A stretch of 24,000 bases of DNA, taken from positions 992,039-1,016,038 of the forward strand of contig DFXZ01000004.1 of NCBI GenBank assembly GCA_002381805.1, given 5' to 3'. How positions within the stretch are numbered: position 1 is the stretch's first letter; every line of letters begins with the position of its first letter. The translations under genes were made by a program, and so were the position numbers. The DNA is from Bdellovibrio sp. UBA4095 (GTDB lineage: Bacteria; Bdellovibrionota; Bdellovibrionia; Bdellovibrionales; Bdellovibrionaceae). This document shows, piece by piece, positions 9,491-17,421 of this stretch. The notes under the pieces were generated by a model that did no database searches, was not told where the DNA came from, and was given only the letters and a program-made list of their open reading frames with translations.

Positions 9491-10720
9491 CTATCGTTTC
9501 GCAGGACGTTCGCCAAACAAAATAGTCCCAAGACGCACAATAGTTGCGCCTTCTTCGATGGCGACTTTAAAGTCATGGCTCGTGCCCATTGACAGTTCGT
9601 TTAAGGGATGGGTTTTCAGATCCGTATTTTTCGCGAGGTCCTCCCGCAGTTCGCGCAGCTGCCTAAAGTAGGGACGTGCTGACTCCCCAGTTTCGGTTAA
9701 TGGTGGCATCGTCATGAAACCGCAGATTTTAAGATGACTAAGCTGTACAAGTTGATTCCAGGCAGTCCAAAGCGCTGCTTTATCGAACCCACTTTTGGTG
9801 GCCTCTTTCGCTAAATTCACCTGCACAAGAATAGACTGATGAATATTTTTGTTTATGCAGGCCTTATTCAGGACTTCGGCAAGCTCCAAGGAGTCGACAG
9901 AGTGAATAAGATGAAAACGACCGACGACGAGCTTGGCCTTATTCTTTTGTAAATGACCAATAAGATGCCACTCAATTTCAACGAGATCTTGCAATGAATC
10001 GAGCTTCTCGAGCGCCTCTTGCACGTAGTTTTCCGCAAACTTCCTTTGACCTAGTTGATAAATCTCGCGAATTCTTTCGCTTGTCTGAAGTTTAGAAACG
10101 GCGAGCAATTTTGCCGGTCGGCTTTGTTCTGAGAGGTTTTGAAAATTCAGTCTATCAAGTAATTTGCGGACGACTTGAATCGGCAAACCCACGACATTGT
10201 CGTACGATCCTTCGAACTTTTCGACGAACTCACGACCTTGGCCTTGTATTCCGTAGGCACCGGCTTTGTCCATGGGTTCGCCGGTTTGAATATAGGCTCG
10301 TATTTGCTCGGGACTTAGTTTTTTGAAGAACACGTTTGTGATCTCAACATGAGACACTTCCCTCTGGGTTTCGCTATCGATCATACATACAGCAGTCATC
10401 ACCTGATGTGCTTTCCCCGACAAAAGGCTGAGTATGCGAAAGGCGTCGTCCGGATTCTCCGGTTTGCCAAGGGGAGCATTGTCGAAAATGACTTCGGTAT
10501 CCGCTGACAGGACCGTGAAACTTTCGTTGCGACTGGACTTTAGGTCAGATAGTGCAGCACTGGCTTTTCGTCTAGCGATGTCTAAAATTTGCTCGTTCAC
10601 ATTCAGGTTTTTGTCAGGAATTTCCGATACTTTAACTGATACCACGTCGAATGAAAAACCGGCCTCATTAAGAAGTTCGCGGCGACGTGGTGACTGTGAT
10701 GCCAGAATGAGTGGTTTCAT
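9491..10720 (-). CDS. maf-yggS: Fusion protein: Maf nucleotide pyrophosphatase (aa 1-~189) + YggS/YlmE PLP-binding protein (aa ~190-409)
   Basis: Maf motifs: LILASQSPRRRELL, GKPENPDDA, DKAGAYGIQG, GSYDNVVGLP. YggS motifs: LLAVSK (PLP Lys, aa 210), WHLIGHLQKNK, LSMGTSHDFKVAIEEGATIVRLGTILFG. It is one uninterrupted 409-aa frame. Confidence 0.9.
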   Translation of the reverse strand: MKPLILASQSPRRRELLNEAGFSFDVVSVKVSEIPDKNLNVNEQILDIARRKASAALSDLKSSRNESFTVLSADTEVIFDNAPLGKPENPDDAFRILSLLSGKAHQVMTAVCMIDSETQREVSHVEITNVFFKKLSPEQIRAYIQTGEPMDKAGAYGIQGQGREFVEKFEGSYDNVVGLPIQVVRKLLDRLNFQNLSEQSRPAKLLAVSKLQTSERIREIYQLGQRKFAENYVQEALEKLDSLQDLVEIEWHLIGHLQKNKAKLVVGRFHLIHSVDSLELAEVLNKACINKNIHQSILVQVNLAKEATKSGFDKAALWTAWNQLVQLSHLKICGFMTMPPLTETGESARPYFRQLRELREDLAKNTDLKTHPLNELSMGTSHDFKVAIEEGATIVRLGTILFGERPAKR

Positions 10721-10749: not shown

Positions 10750-11658
10750 ATGGGAAGTGCAGAGTTAATGCTCATCTTAGGACTTCTACTCGCAGGAGTA
10801 GCGGTCTTCCTATTTGTAAATTCGATCTTTGCAAGCAACCAAGACAAGCAGCAATTGTCCTGGGCGAATAATGATGAACCCATTAAATCAAAAAATCCGG
10901 TTATCAACTTTTCGCGGCCATTAGTGCATCAGTTTACGCTTCAGCACGCCTTAAGAATTCGCAGTGAGAACTATCGTAAGCGTGTTTCGAAGTACATTAA
11001 AACTGCCGGACTCTCTGCCGAGCTGAATGTGGATGAGTTTATTGGTTTGCAATTACTTTGGGGAATCATGTTTCCCATCTTTTTGCTGATCATGAACTTT
11101 TCATTGCAGCTGGGGTTGTCTACTGGAATGGTCGTCGGCATGGGATTGATAGGCTTTTATTTGCCGCAGATTCACGCTAAAGGCGAAAAGAAGCGACGTG
11201 AACTTTCTGTTCGCGCGGATTTACCATTCTTCATTGACCTGTTGGCATTGTCAGTCGAAGCGGGCTTGGACTTTTTCTCTTCCATCCAGAAAATCGTGGA
11301 TAAGGCACAGGGTACTAATAGTGTATTGGCTGACGAACTTGGAACGGTCCTAAAAGATATTAAAATTGGTGCGTCGAAAACTCAGGCTCTGAAAGACATG
11401 GCGGAGCGTTTGGATATGAATGAAATTACCAGCTTTGTGGCAGTTCTGATCGATGCTGAAACAACGGGGGCAAGTATCTCGATGGTTTTAAAAGATCAGT
11501 CTGAACAGATGCGCCTGGAGAGATTCGTGCGAGCGGAAAAAGCTGGTGCCCGTGCGTCTCAAACAATTTTGATTCCTTTGATGCTTTTTATATTGCCCGC
11601 TGTTTTTATCATCGTATTCGGTCCAGTGGCGGTTTCATTTATGTATGGGAATAAGTAA
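10750..11658 (+). CDS. TadB/TadC-type (T2SS-F/GspF domain) inner-membrane platform protein
   Basis: 302 aa with an N-terminal TM, a central TM pair and a C-terminal TM. The single T2SS-F-like domain is RADLPFFIDLLALSVEAGLDFFSSIQKIV...ITSFVAVLIDAETTGASISMVLKDQSEQMR. Size and topology are typical of TadB/TadC, and I cannot tell B from C. Confidence 0.85.
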   Translation: MGSAELMLILGLLLAGVAVFLFVNSIFASNQDKQQLSWANNDEPIKSKNPVINFSRPLVHQFTLQHALRIRSENYRKRVSKYIKTAGLSAELNVDEFIGLQLLWGIMFPIFLLIMNFSLQLGLSTGMVVGMGLIGFYLPQIHAKGEKKRRELSVRADLPFFIDLLALSVEAGLDFFSSIQKIVDKAQGTNSVLADELGTVLKDIKIGASKTQALKDMAERLDMNEITSFVAVLIDAETTGASISMVLKDQSEQMRLERFVRAEKAGARASQTILIPLMLFILPAVFIIVFGPVAVSFMYGNK

Positions 11659-12011
11659 TGATGTCTGCAGTGCTTGAAAATAAAACCACAAATCAAAAGT
11701 TGATCGCTGATCTTGAGATCGCGAGTGACTTTTGGTCTCGCGGCAAGGGACTTCTGGGAAGGTCTTCCCTTGCTGAGGGGCAGGCTTTGTGGATTCATCG
11801 CTGCAATAGCATTCATACATTTTTTATGAAGTTCTCAATTGATTGTGTTTTTGTAGATAAAAATCTGAAAGTAAAGGCCCTTTATCAGAATGTTCAACCG
11901 TGGCGCTTAGTTCCTCCAGTATGGGGAGCGAATTCTGTCATTGAAATGCGTTCGGGAACGATTGGTGAAAGAAAAATTTCGGTAGGAGATCAACTCTATG
12001 TGGGCACTTAG
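11658..12011 (+). CDS. DUF192 (COG1430) family protein
   Basis: 117 aa. The pattern DFWSRGKGLLGRSSLAEGQALWIHRCNSIHTFFMKFSIDCVFVDKNLKV...SVIEMRSGT...VGDQL fits DUF192. There is no signal peptide. The start overlaps the upstream stop (TAATG). Confidence 0.85.
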   Translation: MMSAVLENKTTNQKLIADLEIASDFWSRGKGLLGRSSLAEGQALWIHRCNSIHTFFMKFSIDCVFVDKNLKVKALYQNVQPWRLVPPVWGANSVIEMRSGTIGERKISVGDQLYVGT

Positions 12012-13653
12012 AATACTTTCGGGCCCACAGTCGGGCCAAATATTAGATTTAAAAAGTGGTAGAAATCTTCTAGGTCGCTCTCCACATTGTGACGTCAAAA
12101 TCACCAGTCCGGGTGTTTCCAAAGAACATACCGAGATCACAGTTTTCAAAGACAAGATCGTGGTAACGGATTTGAAGTCAAGCAACGGGACTTATTTAAA
12201 TGGAGTTCGCATCCAGACTGGTATCATGCGCTTAGGTGATAAGCTCAGTGTTCATGAGGTTTTGGTAGATATTATCCCTGCGCCTCAGGCTCACTTGGGT
12301 CCTTCGGCCGCAGCAGCGCCTATGCCTTATTATGGTGGCGCTGCACCTCAAATGCCTATGGGAATGCCACTTGGTGCAACTGGTGGAATGCCAGCAGGAA
12401 TGCCGCAACCGATGGCGATGGGTGTGCCCGGAGAAGGTCCGCTGGAAAACGAAGCTCCAGCTCCAGCATATCATCCTGGTGGTATCAAAGCCATTCTTGA
12501 TCGTCTGCATGAGTACTTAGAAAAAGTTGCTTTACCAGGTGTTTATAAACTTCCGCAATTTATGGAGCTTAAGTTTGTCTTGTTAGGCTTTGTTATTCTT
12601 TTCATATTCTCGACGACTTTGCTGTCCATGCTCCCTATGGTACAGATAACTCGTGCGAGCATAATTAACGAAAGTAAAAGAAGAGCGGCTTCCATTGCTA
12701 GAACTGTGGCGACTCTTAATCAAACGGCTTTGTTGCAAAATAATTATGCCTCATTAAGTACGAATGCCGCAGAGTCCGAGGAAGGCGTTACTCAAGTTTT
12801 AATCGTTCAGCAATCCGATGGCATGATACTAGCTCCTGCATCGCGAGCGGGAACGACGCCGGACCTTCCATTTGTTCATACGGCCCGTCGCGAGATGCGG
12901 CCTCAGTCTGTCGCTGTCGATTCGTCCACTATTGGTGCTAGTTTTCCCATAGGACTTTTCGATGCCAGCACGGGTGAGCAATCGATCAAGGCTCATGCTA
13001 TTGTACTTTATGATATCGGAAGTTTGGCATTTGATGATGGCCGAGCAATCAGCCTCTTCATGCAGACACTGGTCATTGCGATCTTACTTGGGTTGTTGAT
13101 TTATTTCTTTATGTACAAGTTAATTGTCTATCCGATTTCGACTTTAAATTCACAGCTCGATGTGGCAATGAGGGAAAAAACGGATAACACTGAAGTGAAC
13201 TTTAACTTTCCACCTCTTCAGGCTTTGATAGGAAATATCAATAGCTTGCTGTCTCGCTATATTCACGGCGACGCTGAGTCTGGAAGCGGTGGAGCAGGAT
13301 TTTTCAATAAGGATGGCGAAGCAGAGAATCTAGTGCAAATGGTAGGATTCCCATGCGTTAGTATTTCTCGAGAAGGTCGAATTATTTCGTGCAACACCGC
13401 CTTTACTCAGGTAGCTCACGCGGAAGTTGCGCAGCTGCAAGGACAAATGTATCAAGTTTTGCCGGATGTGGCTTTGCAACAGAATATTCAAGGACTGTTG
13501 GCGAAAACCACTGAAAACCCACGATCCATTCATACAGACCAACTGGAGTTTGGAGGTCATCCTTGTATCTTGAGCTGTCAGGCGATCACGTCTTCAGCAG
13601 GAGAAGTGGACTATTTCCTTATCACAGTATCACCGAATGAAGGAGGCTCCTGA
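11998..13653 (+). CDS. Membrane sensor-like protein: FHA, Pro/Met/Gly-rich linker, TM, periplasmic domain, TM, HAMP-like, PAS-like (no transmitter domain)
   Basis: 551 aa. FHA is aa 1-92 (nt 11998-12273) with GR...SKEH...SSNG. The linker is aa 93-162. TM1 is aa 192-215 (12571-12642), followed by a ~137-aa predicted periplasmic segment, then TM2 at aa 353-377 (13054-13128). The HAMP-like part is YPISTLNSQL...LQALIGNINSLLSRY. The PAS-like part is aa ~440-548 (ISREGRIISCNTAFTQV...). An AGGAG RBS is present, and the gene overlaps DUF192 by 14 nt. Confidence 0.85.
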   Translation: MWALRILSGPQSGQILDLKSGRNLLGRSPHCDVKITSPGVSKEHTEITVFKDKIVVTDLKSSNGTYLNGVRIQTGIMRLGDKLSVHEVLVDIIPAPQAHLGPSAAAAPMPYYGGAAPQMPMGMPLGATGGMPAGMPQPMAMGVPGEGPLENEAPAPAYHPGGIKAILDRLHEYLEKVALPGVYKLPQFMELKFVLLGFVILFIFSTTLLSMLPMVQITRASIINESKRRAASIARTVATLNQTALLQNNYASLSTNAAESEEGVTQVLIVQQSDGMILAPASRAGTTPDLPFVHTARREMRPQSVAVDSSTIGASFPIGLFDASTGEQSIKAHAIVLYDIGSLAFDDGRAISLFMQTLVIAILLGLLIYFFMYKLIVYPISTLNSQLDVAMREKTDNTEVNFNFPPLQALIGNINSLLSRYIHGDAESGSGGAGFFNKDGEAENLVQMVGFPCVSISREGRIISCNTAFTQVAHAEVAQLQGQMYQVLPDVALQQNIQGLLAKTTENPRSIHTDQLEFGGHPCILSCQAITSSAGEVDYFLITVSPNEGGS

Positions 13654-14747
13654 TGAGTGCTGCTCCCAAGGTGAAAGACAGTTTGAAATTCGATATTGAG
13701 GTCATCAAGGGGCCTCACATCGGCTTAAAGCTTTCCTTTGAAAAGGGAGTGGTATCTATTGGTAGAGGTCCCGAAAACGATTTGGTCCTTGCCAGTGATC
13801 CAAGAGTCAGTCGTGCTCATGCGGAGATTCGCCAGCGTGGAGCGGACTTCGTTATCGTTAATCTAAGTCAAAAGAACTTTGTTTTGGTAAATGGTGAAAA
13901 TGTTCAATCAGAAGTTTTAACGGCAAACATGCTGGTGCAAATTGGAGACACGGAATTCCGCTTTATTCCGCCAATAGTTCCTTCGACCCCAGAACCTGTG
14001 GCACCTCAGGGTATGGTGCAGAATGTTCCGGCAAATCCAGCCATCTTAAATCCTCAGTCAGGGACTCCCGTTTTAAGACCTCAGGCTCCACCGCCCGGAA
14101 TGCCTTCACCTCCGCCCGTAAGGCCTCATGCTGGTGGGCAACCTCAGGGGGCAAGAGCTTCGGCTTCTCGGCAGGCAAGGCCTCATAGCCCACCGTCTTC
14201 AGGGATCGATCCAAGAGTTCGATTCTATGGGATTGTCGTTATCATAGGTTTAGTGGGTTGGTTTTTGTTGTCGCCTTCCAAGAATGGCGCAAAAAAAGAT
14301 CCTAACGAGATACGAACATCAGTGATTTCTCTTCAAGATGTGGCGGAAGCGGAAAAGCGAACTCAGGAATTATTGACAATTAAAAAAGAAAAATATGACT
14401 CTGTTCAGTATCGCAGGGCGCAGGAGAATTTCATTAAAGGCTTTAGGGATTTTCAACAAGGGCAATATGCTAGAGCGCGTGAATCTTTCCAGGTCGTATT
14501 GAACTTGGATCCAGAAAATGAGCTAGCAAAAAGATATTACAGTCTATCAAAAATTAAATTCGACGAGCTAGTAAAGTTTAATATGATTCAGGGTAATAGA
14601 TATCGAGAAAAGAAGAACTGGCGTATGTGTCAGTCAAATTATTCGAATGTTATGACCATGCTGCAGAATCGCAAGGACGACCCAACATATAAAGAAGCGA
14701 AGCAATTTTACGATGAGTGTACTTTGAATCTGGAGGGCAGATTCTAA
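13653..14747 (+). CDS. FHA-domain inner-membrane protein with a periplasmic TPR-like domain
   Basis: 364 aa. FHA is aa 11-104 (nt 13683-13964) with IGRGPEN...VSRAH...VLVNG. The Pro-rich linker is aa 105-187. The TM is FYGIVVIIGLVGWFLL (14220-14273). The C-terminus has TPR-like repeats (FRDFQQGQYARARESFQVVLNLDPENELA). AGGAGG RBS, and the start overlaps the upstream stop (TGATG). Confidence 0.85.
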   Translation: MSAAPKVKDSLKFDIEVIKGPHIGLKLSFEKGVVSIGRGPENDLVLASDPRVSRAHAEIRQRGADFVIVNLSQKNFVLVNGENVQSEVLTANMLVQIGDTEFRFIPPIVPSTPEPVAPQGMVQNVPANPAILNPQSGTPVLRPQAPPPGMPSPPPVRPHAGGQPQGARASASRQARPHSPPSSGIDPRVRFYGIVVIIGLVGWFLLSPSKNGAKKDPNEIRTSVISLQDVAEAEKRTQELLTIKKEKYDSVQYRRAQENFIKGFRDFQQGQYARARESFQVVLNLDPENELAKRYYSLSKIKFDELVKFNMIQGNRYREKKNWRMCQSNYSNVMTMLQNRKDDPTYKEAKQFYDECTLNLEGRF

Positions 14748-16726
14748 TGGCTCGTTTGAAAGTGCGCCTTCGCGGTCAGATTTTACACGACATAATTCTT
14801 GCGGAAGATCGCGAGTATATTGTCGGTCGCAAAGAAGATTGCGATATAGTTCTGCCTGTTGAAAAAGGGATCTCACGTGAACACATAAAGATTTCTTTTG
14901 TCGATAATTTTTGGACAGTGGAACTCGTATCTCGTTACGGAGAACTAATACATAAAGGGGAACAGTCTCCACATTTTGCTTTGGATCAAGATGGCACTTT
15001 TTCTATCCCTCCTTTTGAGTTCGACTTTTTGAAAAACTCTGAGGGACGCAAAGAGAAAGCGACAGCCAGTGCGAATCTTCCTGCGGTGACCGGAGTCCAC
15101 GAAGTGGCCTTCGGCGGAGATGATGAAAAAACGATCGTGGGCGCTCCACGGACATCGGCTTTCGTTAAAGTGACGGATCCCAACGGCGGCGTGAAGGAAA
15201 TGATTCAGCTAGATGCAGGGGACTCGTGGCTTGCTGGTCGAGATTCAACCTGTCAAATTCAGATTCACGATCAACGTGTCAGCCGCCGTCAGTTCGAATT
15301 GCGACTGGTAAATTCACAGTATGCAATCGTTGACTTGGGAAGCGTTAATGGAACTCTGGTAAACGGAAATCCAATATCAACGTCAGAGCCGTTGATACTA
15401 AAGAGCGGCGATGCAATTAGTGTTTTAGATAACTATTTTTATTTCGAGCTTCACGATGCAAATTTCCAGCGTCGGTTAGAGCTTGTGGTCGCACAACCGA
15501 TGAGCCCTTTGGTTCAGGGGCAAGATTACGGCCATTCGCCGATGACGCCAATTCCATATCCTCAACAGTATCCTGCTCCTTATCAGGCTCCCTATCCTGG
15601 GGTTGTGACAACACCTGATTCAGAGTCCGGAAGTAAGAAGTTTGATTACAAAAAAAATCGACCCAAAATTATCGCGGGTGCAATTGCACTTTTAGTTGTC
15701 GCATATTTCTTTAGCGGTGGGGAAAGTCAGCAGTCGGCAAATTCGCCTACTGGGGCATTTGCGCCGGGTTCTCCACAAGAAGTCTTTTCCAAGCTGAAGC
15801 CCGAACAGCAAGCTCTAGTTCGACAACGTTATAAAGATGCTAAGAATCTTTATATGCAGGGGAAATATCAGCTCGCCCAAGATGAGATTATTAAAATACA
15901 AGAGCTTGTTCCTGACTATGAAGACATTCGAGAAATCGAAAGACTTTCAAAAGAAGCGATTTACATTCAGGACCAGCAGCGTCGACATGAGGAGCTTGAA
16001 AAAGCTAAAGCAGAAAATGAGGCGAAGATTCAAACGCAAGTAGCCCAATGTCGAAAGATTATTAATCCTTCGATCACTGTCGCGCAAATGGACGAATGTG
16101 TAAGCCCAGTGCTGCAGTTCGGACCGGAGCATCCAGGAATTTTGGATTTACGCTCTCAAGTGGAAGCTATTGTAGCTCAGCGTGAAGCAAAAGCAGCAGA
16201 GCGTGAAGCATACCAGGAAAGGGTAGCGCGTCTGACTCACCTCTATAATAAAGCACAGAGCGTTCAGAAGAGTGGCAAGCCTTTGGATGCCATCGCGGCA
16301 TTTGAAAAAGTCGTCGAGTCAAGTCTGCCGGACCCGCACCGCTATAAAGATCAGTCTAAACGGACGATTGCTTCGATACGCTCGATGATGAACTCGAAGA
16401 CTGCGAGTTTACAAGCAGAGGCTGAAAAGTTTTATCAAGCTCAGAATCTGCGTATGGCAATTATGACTTTGCGAAAGGCGCGTCAGATTGATCCGACCAA
16501 TGATGAGTTGCCCGAGAAAATCGAACGTTACACCGTTGAACTAAGGAAACAGATGATGTCGCTTTATCAGGAAGGAATTCTTGAAGAGAGTTTTGGCAAT
16601 GTGGACGGAGGCGAGTCGCGTGCCGGAGCCAAGGATAAATGGAAAAAGATTCTTGAGCTGGATATCGCAGATGGTGAGTACTATAAAAAGGCATACATTA
16701 AGCTTAAGAAATACGGTGCTCTATGA
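14747..16726 (+). CDS. Tandem-FHA inner-membrane protein with a long periplasmic TPR/coiled-coil domain
   Basis: I prefer the ATG at 14747 (MARLKV...; GGAGGG RBS 9 nt upstream; TAATG overlap) over the GTG at 14717 in the ORF track. FHA-a is aa 1-94 (14747-15028) with VGRKED...ISREH but YG in place of NG. FHA-b is aa 138-236 (15158-15454) with AGRDS...VSRRQ...SVNG. The P/Y/Q-rich linker is PIPYPQQYPAPYQAPYPG. The TM is IIAGAIALLVVAYFF (15665-15712). About 330 aa of helical TPR-like C-terminus follow. Confidence 0.85.
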   Translation: MARLKVRLRGQILHDIILAEDREYIVGRKEDCDIVLPVEKGISREHIKISFVDNFWTVELVSRYGELIHKGEQSPHFALDQDGTFSIPPFEFDFLKNSEGRKEKATASANLPAVTGVHEVAFGGDDEKTIVGAPRTSAFVKVTDPNGGVKEMIQLDAGDSWLAGRDSTCQIQIHDQRVSRRQFELRLVNSQYAIVDLGSVNGTLVNGNPISTSEPLILKSGDAISVLDNYFYFELHDANFQRRLELVVAQPMSPLVQGQDYGHSPMTPIPYPQQYPAPYQAPYPGVVTTPDSESGSKKFDYKKNRPKIIAGAIALLVVAYFFSGGESQQSANSPTGAFAPGSPQEVFSKLKPEQQALVRQRYKDAKNLYMQGKYQLAQDEIIKIQELVPDYEDIREIERLSKEAIYIQDQQRRHEELEKAKAENEAKIQTQVAQCRKIINPSITVAQMDECVSPVLQFGPEHPGILDLRSQVEAIVAQREAKAAEREAYQERVARLTHLYNKAQSVQKSGKPLDAIAAFEKVVESSLPDPHRYKDQSKRTIASIRSMMNSKTASLQAEAEKFYQAQNLRMAIMTLRKARQIDPTNDELPEKIERYTVELRKQMMSLYQEGILEESFGNVDGGESRAGAKDKWKKILELDIADGEYYKKAYIKLKKYGAL

Positions 16727-17421
16727 TTGCGATGAAACTTCAAGAGCGATCTTACAGTACCAAGATCATCCGTCCCAAGCCTATGATTCACCAGGAAGAC
16801 GACGGCTCTCTGATCGTTCTAGCAACTGTATGGGGGCAAGCTGAGCACGGGCAAAGGGCGATAGATGAAGTGGTTAAATATGTGAATGCAGCAAAAGCGG
16901 ATGTGGAAGTAACATCACCTTTCGAGTATCTTAACTGCCTAACTGATGAGGCAAACTACGTTAGAACGGCCCTTCATATCGCCAATGACATCCTCTATCG
17001 CGGCGAAAACAGAAAAGAATATATTTCCGGCGTGGAGATCATGGCATTGTTCTGCAGAGGCAACCAGGTGGCCTGGGCTCATGTGGGATGCCCTAGTTTA
17101 TTTATTCAAAGAAGTGATCGTAGGCTGCAGCCGTTGTCCATTGGAATGGATCTTTCTTCTGAACTTAAAGAACATGACCAGATTATGGCTCCTTTGCCGG
17201 CGCAGCTATTAGGGTTAGAACCAACCTGTCATGTGCGCAGTGGCCATACTCGAATTAACAGTGGTGATCAGTTGGTTCTTCTGGGCAGTTCGTTAATTGC
17301 CAATTCTTTATTGATTCGACCTTTTGGGGAGTTCGCTCTGGCCGATATTACCAATCGGATGATTCAAGAGGAGCCTGAAAATCCATTCTGGCTTGGCCTT
17401 GTTGATTTGGCAGATAGCTAG
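16723..17421 (+). CDS. PP2C/PPM-fold protein with degenerate catalytic motifs (probable pseudophosphatase)
   Basis: 232 aa, aligned by eye to bacterial PPMs (PrpC/Stp type). Motif 1 is kept (IHQEDDG vs. xHNEDD). Motif 2 is LATVWGQAEHG instead of VADGMGGH (Asp lost). ALFCRGNQVAWAHVGCPSLF replaces ALxxxxxxxxAxxGDSRxY. GDQLVLLGSSL replaces GDxLLLCSDGL (Asp lost). PENPF replaces GxDNxT. The start overlaps the upstream stop (ATGA). Confidence 0.65.
   Translation: MIAMKLQERSYSTKIIRPKPMIHQEDDGSLIVLATVWGQAEHGQRAIDEVVKYVNAAKADVEVTSPFEYLNCLTDEANYVRTALHIANDILYRGENRKEYISGVEIMALFCRGNQVAWAHVGCPSLFIQRSDRRLQPLSIGMDLSSELKEHDQIMAPLPAQLLGLEPTCHVRSGHTRINSGDQLVLLGSSLIANSLLIRPFGEFALADITNRMIQEEPENPFWLGLVDLADS

Follow-up and report, generated by a model that had tools for sequence, protein, structure and literature searches.

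The 24,000-nucleotide stretch of DNA analysed here (hereafter, the window; Bdellovibrio sp. UBA4095, contig DFXZ01000004.1, positions 992,039 to 1,016,038 of the forward strand; G+C content of about 45%) contains an open reading frame (ORF) of 551 amino acids (aa) at positions 11998–13653 of the plus strand, which lies within a tightly packed run of six plus-strand genes. Its first 14 nt are shared with the end of the preceding DUF192 gene, and its stop codon has one base in common with the start of the next gene. A first-pass annotation of the same DNA had described the predicted protein as a sensor architecture lacking an output. The order of the parts in the chain was confirmed: an FHA domain, a disordered linker (linker 1), a transmembrane (TM) helix, a periplasmic domain, a second TM helix, a HAMP-like module, a further linker (linker 2), and a PAS domain. 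The structural statements below refer to an AlphaFold2 single-chain model built on 32 homologues, with a mean predicted local distance difference test score (pLDDT) of 72. The coordinates of all features are collected in Table 1.

The N-terminal domain matches Pfam FHA (PF00498) at residues 25–83, with 56.4 bits against a cut-off of 20.7 (E-value, 4 × 10−15), and this family was matched in 59 out of 59 diverse homologues. The phosphothreonine (pThr)-binding motifs recognised at first pass are all present, namely GR (G26, R27), SKEH (S41–H44) and SSNG (S61–G64), and the key positions G26, R27, S41, H44, D58, S61, N63 and G64 are invariant in the 59 homologues, which range down to 29% identity. 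The residues predicted to bind pThr (R27, S41, H44 and N63) are intact. A search of the family profile against all PDB sequences returned FHA domains only (Rv0020c, GarA, OdhI and DgcB; for the latter, 6hbz, E-value, 2.4 × 10−6), so sequence alone gives no handle on the remaining protein.

Linker 1 comprises 67 aa (residues 96–162), close to the 70 aa of the Pro/Met/Gly-rich linker described previously. Its composition is dominated by Pro, Ala, Gly and Met (P15, A13, G13 and M8), and it is modelled as disordered (pLDDT < 50 at residues 98–161). The triple repeat reported in its DNA was found at 12361, 12385 and 12397 (GGAATGCC); in total, seven copies of this sequence are present in the window, against 0.73 expected. 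A functional (e.g., metal-binding) role of the Met/Pro/Gly repeat was considered and rejected, as the length and composition of the linker change completely among lineages: its identity to distant members is about 5%, and it shifts from Pro/Ala/Gly/Met-rich to Ser-rich or Asp/Glu/Lys-rich. The linker is followed by a conserved juxtamembrane segment, which begins with a helix in the model (residues 163–178) and has Y173, V177, P180, G181 and Y183 invariant in the 32-sequence alignment; P180 is nearly invariant among the 59 diverse members as well.

The two TM helices are strongly hydrophobic (19-residue mean hydropathy of up to 2.48 for TM1 and 2.52 for TM2) and bracket a segment of 134 aa, compared with the ~137 aa estimated in the first-pass annotation. 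We infer that this is a two-pass inner-membrane protein with both termini in the cytoplasm, because export of a 190-residue head is impossible in the absence of a signal peptide, because the FHA domain needs pThr made by a kinase, and because HAMP and PAS modules past the last TM helix are cytoplasmic. In the model, a helix runs from TM1 into a long periplasmic helix, which gives way to a sheet of five strands with helices inserted (strands 264–271 and 277–279, helix 291–299, strands 303–308, 311–321 and 328–339). The periplasmic domain is modelled with a pLDDT of ~87–92 in the full-length protein, and with a pLDDT of 81 and a predicted template-modelling score of 0.75 when folded alone. The best matches of the isolated domain in the PDB are weak: the LuxQ periplasmic domain (E-value, 0.055) and the dCache domain of Mlp24 (E-value, 0.078), with a template-modelling score (TM-score) of ~0.3. 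Other family members gave stray Cache matches only (sCache_3_2, E-value, 0.13; dCache_1, E-value, 0.05). The Cache/PDC-like identity suggested at first pass agrees with the modelled topology, but it finds no counterpart in Pfam and the fold matches are weak. The label is therefore reasonable and suggestive as far as the model goes, yet unproven, and the domain is not called Cache here, since the fold search of the isolated domain gave no significant match.

Past TM2, the model shows a plan resembling that of HAMP domains. One helix (348–393) forms TM2 and the first cytoplasmic helix, a loop occupies residues 394–404, and a second helix spans residues 405–422; Pro379 is located six residues past TM2, and the connector between the helices is 11 residues long. 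The segment is modelled with a pLDDT of 50–66 in the monomer. When a profile of the segment was aligned by hhalign to that of 11 HAMP domains of the same genome, the alignment ran through the whole segment in register (51 columns), with a P-value of 7.9 × 10−5 and a probability of 61%, whereas three other segments of the protein used as controls gave P-values of 0.07–0.86 over 20 columns. Pfam HAMP does not appear in the family listing of the 59 diverse members, and a genome-wide scan with PF00672 found 21 HAMP domains, the product of the target gene not being among them. The proposal of a HAMP-like segment thus stands with regard to plan and length, but not with regard to Pfam, which never matches. 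The module is best described as HAMP-like, with moderate profile-profile support and unproven membership in the HAMP family. A separate observation concerns another HAMP protein of this genome: at C7:12307-15513, an 1833-aa open frame carries at least 13 tandem HAMP domains spaced ~92 residues apart, i.e., it encodes a poly-HAMP protein.

Linker 2 is also disordered in the model (pLDDT < 50 at residues 415–435) and leads to a PAS fold at residues 438–546, which is modelled with a pLDDT of ~90 and has the element order strand-strand-helices-strand-strand-strand. PAS_4 scores marginally, although above its cut-off of 23.1 bits (25.4 bits for the whole protein and 27.9 bits for the C-terminal piece alone), and PAS families were matched in 14–24 of the 59 diverse members (best E-value, 6 × 10−8). 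Foldseek matches include 3fc7_B (TM-score, 0.75; root-mean-square deviation, 2.9), PYP and FixL. The PAS domain announced by the first-pass annotation is, accordingly, well founded, and so is the lack of a catalytic output. No HisKA, HATPase, GGDEF, EAL, MCP-signal or kinase domain was found by Pfam in the window protein or in 69 homologues (59 diverse and 10 phylum-distant), and Pfam and NCBIfam scans detected no hidden output domain. The chain ends five residues past the PAS domain, and the aligned homologues stop at the same place with the same short tail. One strand of the PAS domain (aa 521–527, window 13558–13578) carries C523 and C527, which are invariant, and H521, which is nearly so, in the 32-sequence Bdellovibrio-level alignment. 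A cofactor or redox site as a family feature was rejected, as these residues are lost in the 59-sequence and phylum-distant sets; judging by the alignments, they may form a redox or metal site specific to the lineage.

More than 480 full-length homologues were found. HMMER, run exhaustively against 1.84 billion cluster representatives, yielded 235 clusters (50% identity) at E ≤ 1 × 10−30, mostly of 500–580 aa, the majority aligned to the query from end to end, with identity down to ~29%. Weaker matches (23,994 at E ≤ 0.001) are expected to lie mainly in the widespread FHA domain. The closest named homologues (~530–575 aa) belong to Bdellovibrio or Pseudobdellovibrionaceae, apart from one contig labelled as a Bacillota metagenome-assembled genome. 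This contig (JBLMWG010000092.1, 'Bacillota bacterium') harbors a full Bdellovibrio-type operon with its flanks and a target gene product of 71% identity, and it is probably a mis-binned Bdellovibrio contig. The gene is present in a single copy in its own 3.33-Mb genome, where neither paralogues nor kinase relatives of the sensor core were detected, all other matches being to FHA domains.

To cover the phylum, 401 sampled genomes were searched with residues 170–551, i.e., with the part of the protein that lacks the FHA domain (E ≤ 1 × 10−5). This part was matched in 382 genomes (~95%), in 323 of the 337 genomes of good quality, and in 192 of the 203 genera, usually once per genome, and the open frames listed were mostly of 500–600 aa. 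The gene is mostly absent from one family of the phylum: only four out of its 14 genomes match, several of the non-matching ones being >90% complete, while all of the other families keep it. This family could represent a lineage that lost the module. Full ORFs retrieved from 15 distant genomes have the same plan from FHA to PAS, with a periplasmic domain of ~135–150 aa and a HAMP-like segment of the KPFEVLN...DEL..L...N type. Among 74 members, the lengths of the segments differ greatly in their constancy (Table 1). The fixed lengths of TM1, TM2 and the HAMP-like module point to a mechanically constrained core. The PAS domain is the least conserved of the folded domains, with 19% identity to phylum-distant members.

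The surroundings of the gene are likewise conserved. In all of the 54 named Bdellovibrionales loci, as far as the contigs reach, the order of genes is T2SSF, DUF192, target, FHA-TPR, 2xFHA-TPR, PP2C-like, and the first five of these genes are found in the same order in 15 out of 15 phylum-distant genomes. The sixth, PP2C-like gene is located directly downstream in 14 of these 15 distant loci, as detected by a family profile, and the T2SSF gene is present upstream in every locus, close or distant, that reaches that far. The Tad-type platform gene and the other FHA genes are thus always neighbours of the target, which answers the neighbour survey proposed at first pass: this is so in the 54 close loci, as far as contigs reach, and in 15/15 distant genomes. 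The fixed operon context is therefore phylum-wide. The PP2C-like protein gave no Pfam or PDB sequence match; its conservation across the phylum together with a marginal phosphatase match (Table 1) is consistent with a divergent or an inactive phosphatase fold. No Hanks kinase is encoded in the operon, and two are found elsewhere on the same contig, far away.

The main tad locus of the same genome contains genes for RcpC/CpaB, a secretin, and a fused ParA-type/TadA ATPase, and one platform gene only. The fusion protein is 738 aa long and combines a ParA/CpaE-type NTPase with a TadA (T2SSE) ATPase; the platform gene is followed by that of an RHS-repeat protein. Canonical Tad systems have two platform proteins, TadB and TadC, and the second platform gene is missing at this locus. 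The T2SSF gene of the operon can plausibly supply it, which ties the operon to the Tad pilus. On the opposite strand of the window, at 9491–10720, a single 409-aa ORF joins Maf and YggS-type domains. In most of the related loci, the best tblastn segment covers about half of this ORF, and in two loci the halves match as separate pieces; the Maf-YggS fusion may not be universal.

Table 1. Features of the target gene, its operon and the main tad locus, with segment lengths among 74 family members.
Feature	Position	Strand	Length in 74 members	Basis or remark
Whole gene, FHA-TM-periplasmic domain-TM-HAMP-like-PAS	11998–13653	+		ORF, >480 full-length homologues
FHA domain, cytoplasmic (aa 1–95)	11998–12282	+		Pfam, PDB profile search, invariant residues
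Linker 1 (aa 96–162), Pro/Ala/Gly/Met-rich in this lineage	12283–12483	+	24–93 aa	pLDDT, composition
Juxtamembrane segment, conserved (aa 163–190)	12484–12567	+		Model, alignments; YxxxVxLPGVYxL motif before TM1
TM helix 1 (aa 191–215)	12568–12642	+	exactly 25 aa	Hydropathy, helical in model
Periplasmic domain (aa 216–349), PAS/Cache-like topology	12643–13044	+	131–149 aa	Model
TM helix 2 (aa 350–373)	13045–13116	+	exactly 24 aa	Hydropathy
HAMP-like module (aa 374–424)	13117–13269	+	50–52 aa	Model, fixed length, hhalign
Linker 2, flexible (aa 425–437), Gly/Ser-rich here	13270–13308	+	9–21 aa; sequence not conserved	pLDDT, variable sequence
C-terminal cytoplasmic PAS domain (aa 438–546)	13309–13635	+		PAS_4, model, Foldseek
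Operon gene 1, single-domain T2SSF (TadC-like) platform, Bd0470 ortholog	10750–11658	+		Pfam T2SSF, E-value 2.5 × 10−15
Operon gene 2, DUF192	11658–12011	+		Pfam DUF192, E-value 5.8 × 10−20; conserved position
Operon gene 4, FHA-linker-TPR, Bd0473 ortholog	13653–14747	+		Pfam FHA, E-value 9 × 10−13; weak TPR matches; synteny
Operon gene 5, 2xFHA-TPR, Bd0474 ortholog	14717–16726	+		Pfam FHA, two stretches, E-value 4 × 10−26
Operon gene 6, PP2C-like, 232 aa, Bd0475 ortholog	16723–17421	+		NCBIfam Stp1 PP2C, weak, E-value 0.0038
Main tad locus, ORFs (own-genome contig C14:737000-755000)	13177–14076, 11615–13141, 9345–11561, 8466–9341, 6780–8435	−		

Gene order and annotations match the list of Bd0470–Bd0475 in B. 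bacteriovorus HD100, where Bd0470 is annotated as a T2SS F family protein, Bd0471 as DUF192, Bd0472–Bd0474 as FHA domain-containing proteins, and Bd0475 as a hypothetical protein. From this order and annotation, rather than from an accession match, we infer that the target is the ortholog of Bd0472, the public annotation of which reads "FHA domain-containing protein" only. According to the literature, the transposon sequencing (Tn-seq) fitness of Bd0472 with Vibrio cholerae as the prey is 0.0021 and 0.0007 (Duncan et al. 2019, PMC6561027). In the same study, a Bd0472 mutant left 95% of the prey surviving in a killing assay, with an attachment score of 0.57 and a prey-rounding score of 0.46, and Bd0470–Bd0474 were all strongly required for predation (PMC6561027). 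Bd0470::tn was unable to attach, whereas Bd0474::tn attached but could not round or kill prey, and both were complemented (PMC6561027). The Ser/Thr kinase Bd3148 was required too (Tn-seq fitness, 0.003; PMC6561027 Data Set S5), which qualifies it as a candidate for the kinase acting upstream of the operon's three FHA proteins. A 2025 study lists Bd0470–Bd0475 as an operon, reports binding of Bd0474 to the TPR protein Bd0075 in a two-hybrid assay, and predicts a contact between Bd0473 and Bd0475 by AlphaFold-Multimer (PMC12034629).

In the searchable literature, Bd0472 is named in a single paper, and no paper was found that combines FHA, HAMP, PAS and transmembrane. The statement of the first-pass annotation that this layout had not been described holds in so far as no searchable paper describes the TM-sensor-HAMP-PAS arrangement; on the other hand, the gene itself is known as Bd0472, and its Tn-seq data are published. 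What is known is therefore the gene and its requirement for predation, while a TM-sensor-HAMP-PAS layout joined to an FHA domain and devoid of an output is undescribed in the searchable literature.

The closest structural parallel is found in a sensor histidine kinase. A Foldseek search with the full model gave WalK (9a5d_A) as the best match, with an E-value of 1.3 × 10−12 over 389 aligned columns, far ahead of the others; next were two-PAS proteins (DhaR, PpsR and DosP), single PAS domains, and the FHA-fold head of PrgH (4g2s). WalK is built of a TM helix, an extracellular PAS-like domain, a second TM helix, HAMP and PAS domains, and then the kinase. From TM1 on, the target and WalK (WalK/YycG of Bacillota) share the same order of parts, and the 389-column match includes the periplasmic domain. 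The description of the protein as the input half of a two-component sensor is hence fair, because the best match of the full model is to the TM-extracellular PAS-TM-HAMP-PAS part of WalK. In contrast to WalK, which has DHp and catalytic ATPase domains and no FHA domain, the target stops past the PAS domain and carries an FHA domain at its N-terminus, and its HAMP-to-PAS connection is a disordered linker. No sequence-level relationship to WalK was detected in the PDB profile search or in the search of the own genome.

Other likenesses are partial. EspA of Myxococcus xanthus (FHA-PAS-PAS-histidine kinase-receiver) also combines an N-terminal FHA domain with PAS in one chain, its FHA domain taking input from Ser/Thr kinases. 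The NCBIfam EspA model matches the FHA region only (E-value, 9.5 × 10−12; 43.7 bits against a cut-off of 1400), and EspA is a soluble protein with a full kinase and receiver output, whereas the target is membrane-embedded and has none. Methyl-accepting chemoreceptors differ in that the target has no MCPsignal match, and a PAS domain follows its HAMP-like module instead. Conceptually, the nearest way of working is that of the H1 type VI secretion system (T6SS) pathway of Pseudomonas aeruginosa, in which a periplasmic cue (TagQRST), the Hanks kinase PpkA, the PP2C phosphatase PppA and the scaffold Fha1 decide on the time and place of assembly of an envelope machine. In the target operon, a pilus platform gene is similarly accompanied by genes for three FHA membrane proteins and by a PP2C-like gene. 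It differs from the H1 pathway in that no T6SS genes are present, the kinase is outside the operon, and a single chain unites the sensor-like part with the FHA part; the TagH model gave no match on the target.

The reading preferred here, to which a probability of about 0.5 is assigned, is that the protein serves as the sensor-adaptor subunit in a conserved module of six genes, wired through pThr, that belongs to, or controls, a Tad (type IVb/c) pilus-linked predation apparatus. Its rigid core, consisting of TM1, the PAS/Cache-like periplasmic domain, TM2 and the HAMP-like module, is built like the input module of WalK, with the position of the kinase taken solely by protein-interaction domains on flexible tethers (the N-terminal FHA and the C-terminal PAS). 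By its FHA domain, the protein would attach to a partner carrying pThr made by one of the distant Hanks-type kinases. The periplasmic domain would report the state of a ligand or a partner, such as prey contact or the state of the pilus, and the core would pass this state across the membrane. The output would then be a changed assembly or activity of the Tad-linked complex, brought about through protein-protein contacts and not by catalysis. A more far-reaching version, in which the protein is the founding member of a receptor class that has assembly as its output and gates the Tad-linked predation machine via tethered FHA and PAS adaptors, is offered as speculation and considered unlikely.

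Several points weigh against the assignment as a sensor-adaptor. Neither the window protein nor 10 phylum-distant members have a Pfam HAMP match at E ≤ 1. The fold search of the isolated periplasmic domain against the PDB gave nothing at E ≤ 0.001, and Pfam found no Cache or other match at E ≤ 10 within residues 208–356; as the isolated domain has neither a significant structural match nor a Pfam Cache match, the protein is termed a sensor by analogy. The flank richest in Lys and Arg follows TM1, hence the positive-inside rule was dismissed as uninformative on topology, and charge bias alone does not predict a cytoplasmic N-terminus. In the model, the HAMP-like module is joined to the PAS domain by a disordered linker and not, as in sensor kinases, by a continuous signalling helix, and this detachment keeps a purely structural explanation alive. 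The published transposon insertions are possibly polar, with complementation reported for Bd0470 and Bd0474 only (PMC6561027), and among the three pairs that exceeded an interface predicted template-modelling score of 0.6 in the AlphaFold-Multimer screen, none involved Bd0472 (PMC12034629).

The structural explanation holds that the protein senses nothing and is a scaffold, i.e., an inner-membrane alignment or ring subunit of a Tad-like machine, comparable to SctD/PrgH of type III secretion or to PilN/PilO/GspL-M. Its periplasmic PAS-like domain would then engage in fixed contacts with other proteins, and its FHA domain would hold cytoplasmic parts in place. Proteins of the SctD/YscD/PrgH type also have a cytoplasmic FHA-fold head, a membrane anchor and periplasmic alpha/beta domains. 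The N-terminal domain of the target scores on Yop-YscD_cpl (E-value, 4 × 10−14) as well as on FHA, and the model matches the head of PrgH (4g2s). Strict linkage to the genes of a platform protein and of two membrane proteins with FHA and TPR domains fits a scaffold, as does the flexible tethering of both cytoplasmic domains, which is a trait of scaffolds; the isolated periplasmic domain has no significant match to ligand-binding domains either. However, a pair of TM helices combined with a fixed-length HAMP-like module and a PAS domain on the cytoplasmic side is a hallmark of transmembrane signalling proteins, whereas SctD has one TM helix, three ring-building periplasmic domains and no HAMP or PAS, against the single periplasmic domain of the target. 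The SctD equivalog TIGR02500 reaches 25.9 bits, far from its cut-off of 86, and does so on the FHA part only. To our knowledge, SctD-type FHA folds have lost the pThr-binding residues, which are invariant in the present family. Such a scaffold is possible, albeit on the unlikely side.

Two regulatory explanations are less probable still. Control of PP2C phosphatases by PAS domains is well established (RsbP type), and the protein might be a partner-switching regulator, the PAS domain of which, with or without the FHA domain, controls the PP2C-like protein or a Hanks kinase and thereby sets phosphorylation of the FHA-TPR proteins, the link to Tad being indirect. The co-conservation of the PP2C-like gene at the operon end across the phylum and the requirement of Bd3148 for predation (PMC6561027) speak for this arrangement, but AlphaFold-Multimer paired Bd0475 with Bd0473 and not with Bd0472 (PMC12034629). 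Moreover, activity of the PP2C-like protein is doubtful because of its marginal phosphatase match (E-value, 0.0038) and the lack of Pfam and PDB sequence matches, and the PAS domain is the least conserved of the folded domains; partner switching is accordingly judged improbable. The model of the first-pass annotation, according to which signals from the periplasmic or PAS domain are relayed inside the chain and modulate how well the FHA domain, as the output, binds pThr, is not favoured and is regarded as the least probable of all. The FHA domain is fully canonical and is the sole domain with a defined binding activity, no other output domain is present, and the conserved juxtamembrane helix between linker 1 and TM1 could in principle sequester something. 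Yet no conformational signal can pass through a disordered linker of 24–93 residues whose identity to distant members is ~5%, and a mechanical relay from the core to either the FHA or the PAS end is unlikely, because both sit on disordered, variable linkers. DgcB (Bd0742; FHA-GGDEF) of B. bacteriovorus offers a comparison from the same group of organisms, being an FHA-headed signalling protein that controls prey invasion; it differs from the target, which has a transmembrane sensor-like core and no enzyme domain, in being cytoplasmic with a diguanylate cyclase output. Its FHA domain is reported to be a phosphopeptide-binding input and not an output (PMC6733907). The FHA domain of the target is more reminiscent of a recruitment or input module on a tether.

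The protein bears on prey recognition and on the commitment to invasion in Bdellovibrio and its relatives, since Bd0472 is among the genes most strongly required for prey killing in the published Tn-seq data. As an input module in the style of sensor kinases that lacks an enzyme, it is a testable candidate for coupling events in the periplasm of the predator to phosphothreonine signalling and pilus function. It is also a natural case of a HAMP-type receptor core without a catalytic output, and as such it bears on signalling through scaffolding alone. If the reading as a receptor with assembly as its output were true, the protein would be the long-sought checkpoint that tells an attached Bdellovibrio that the prey is suitable and that invasion may proceed.

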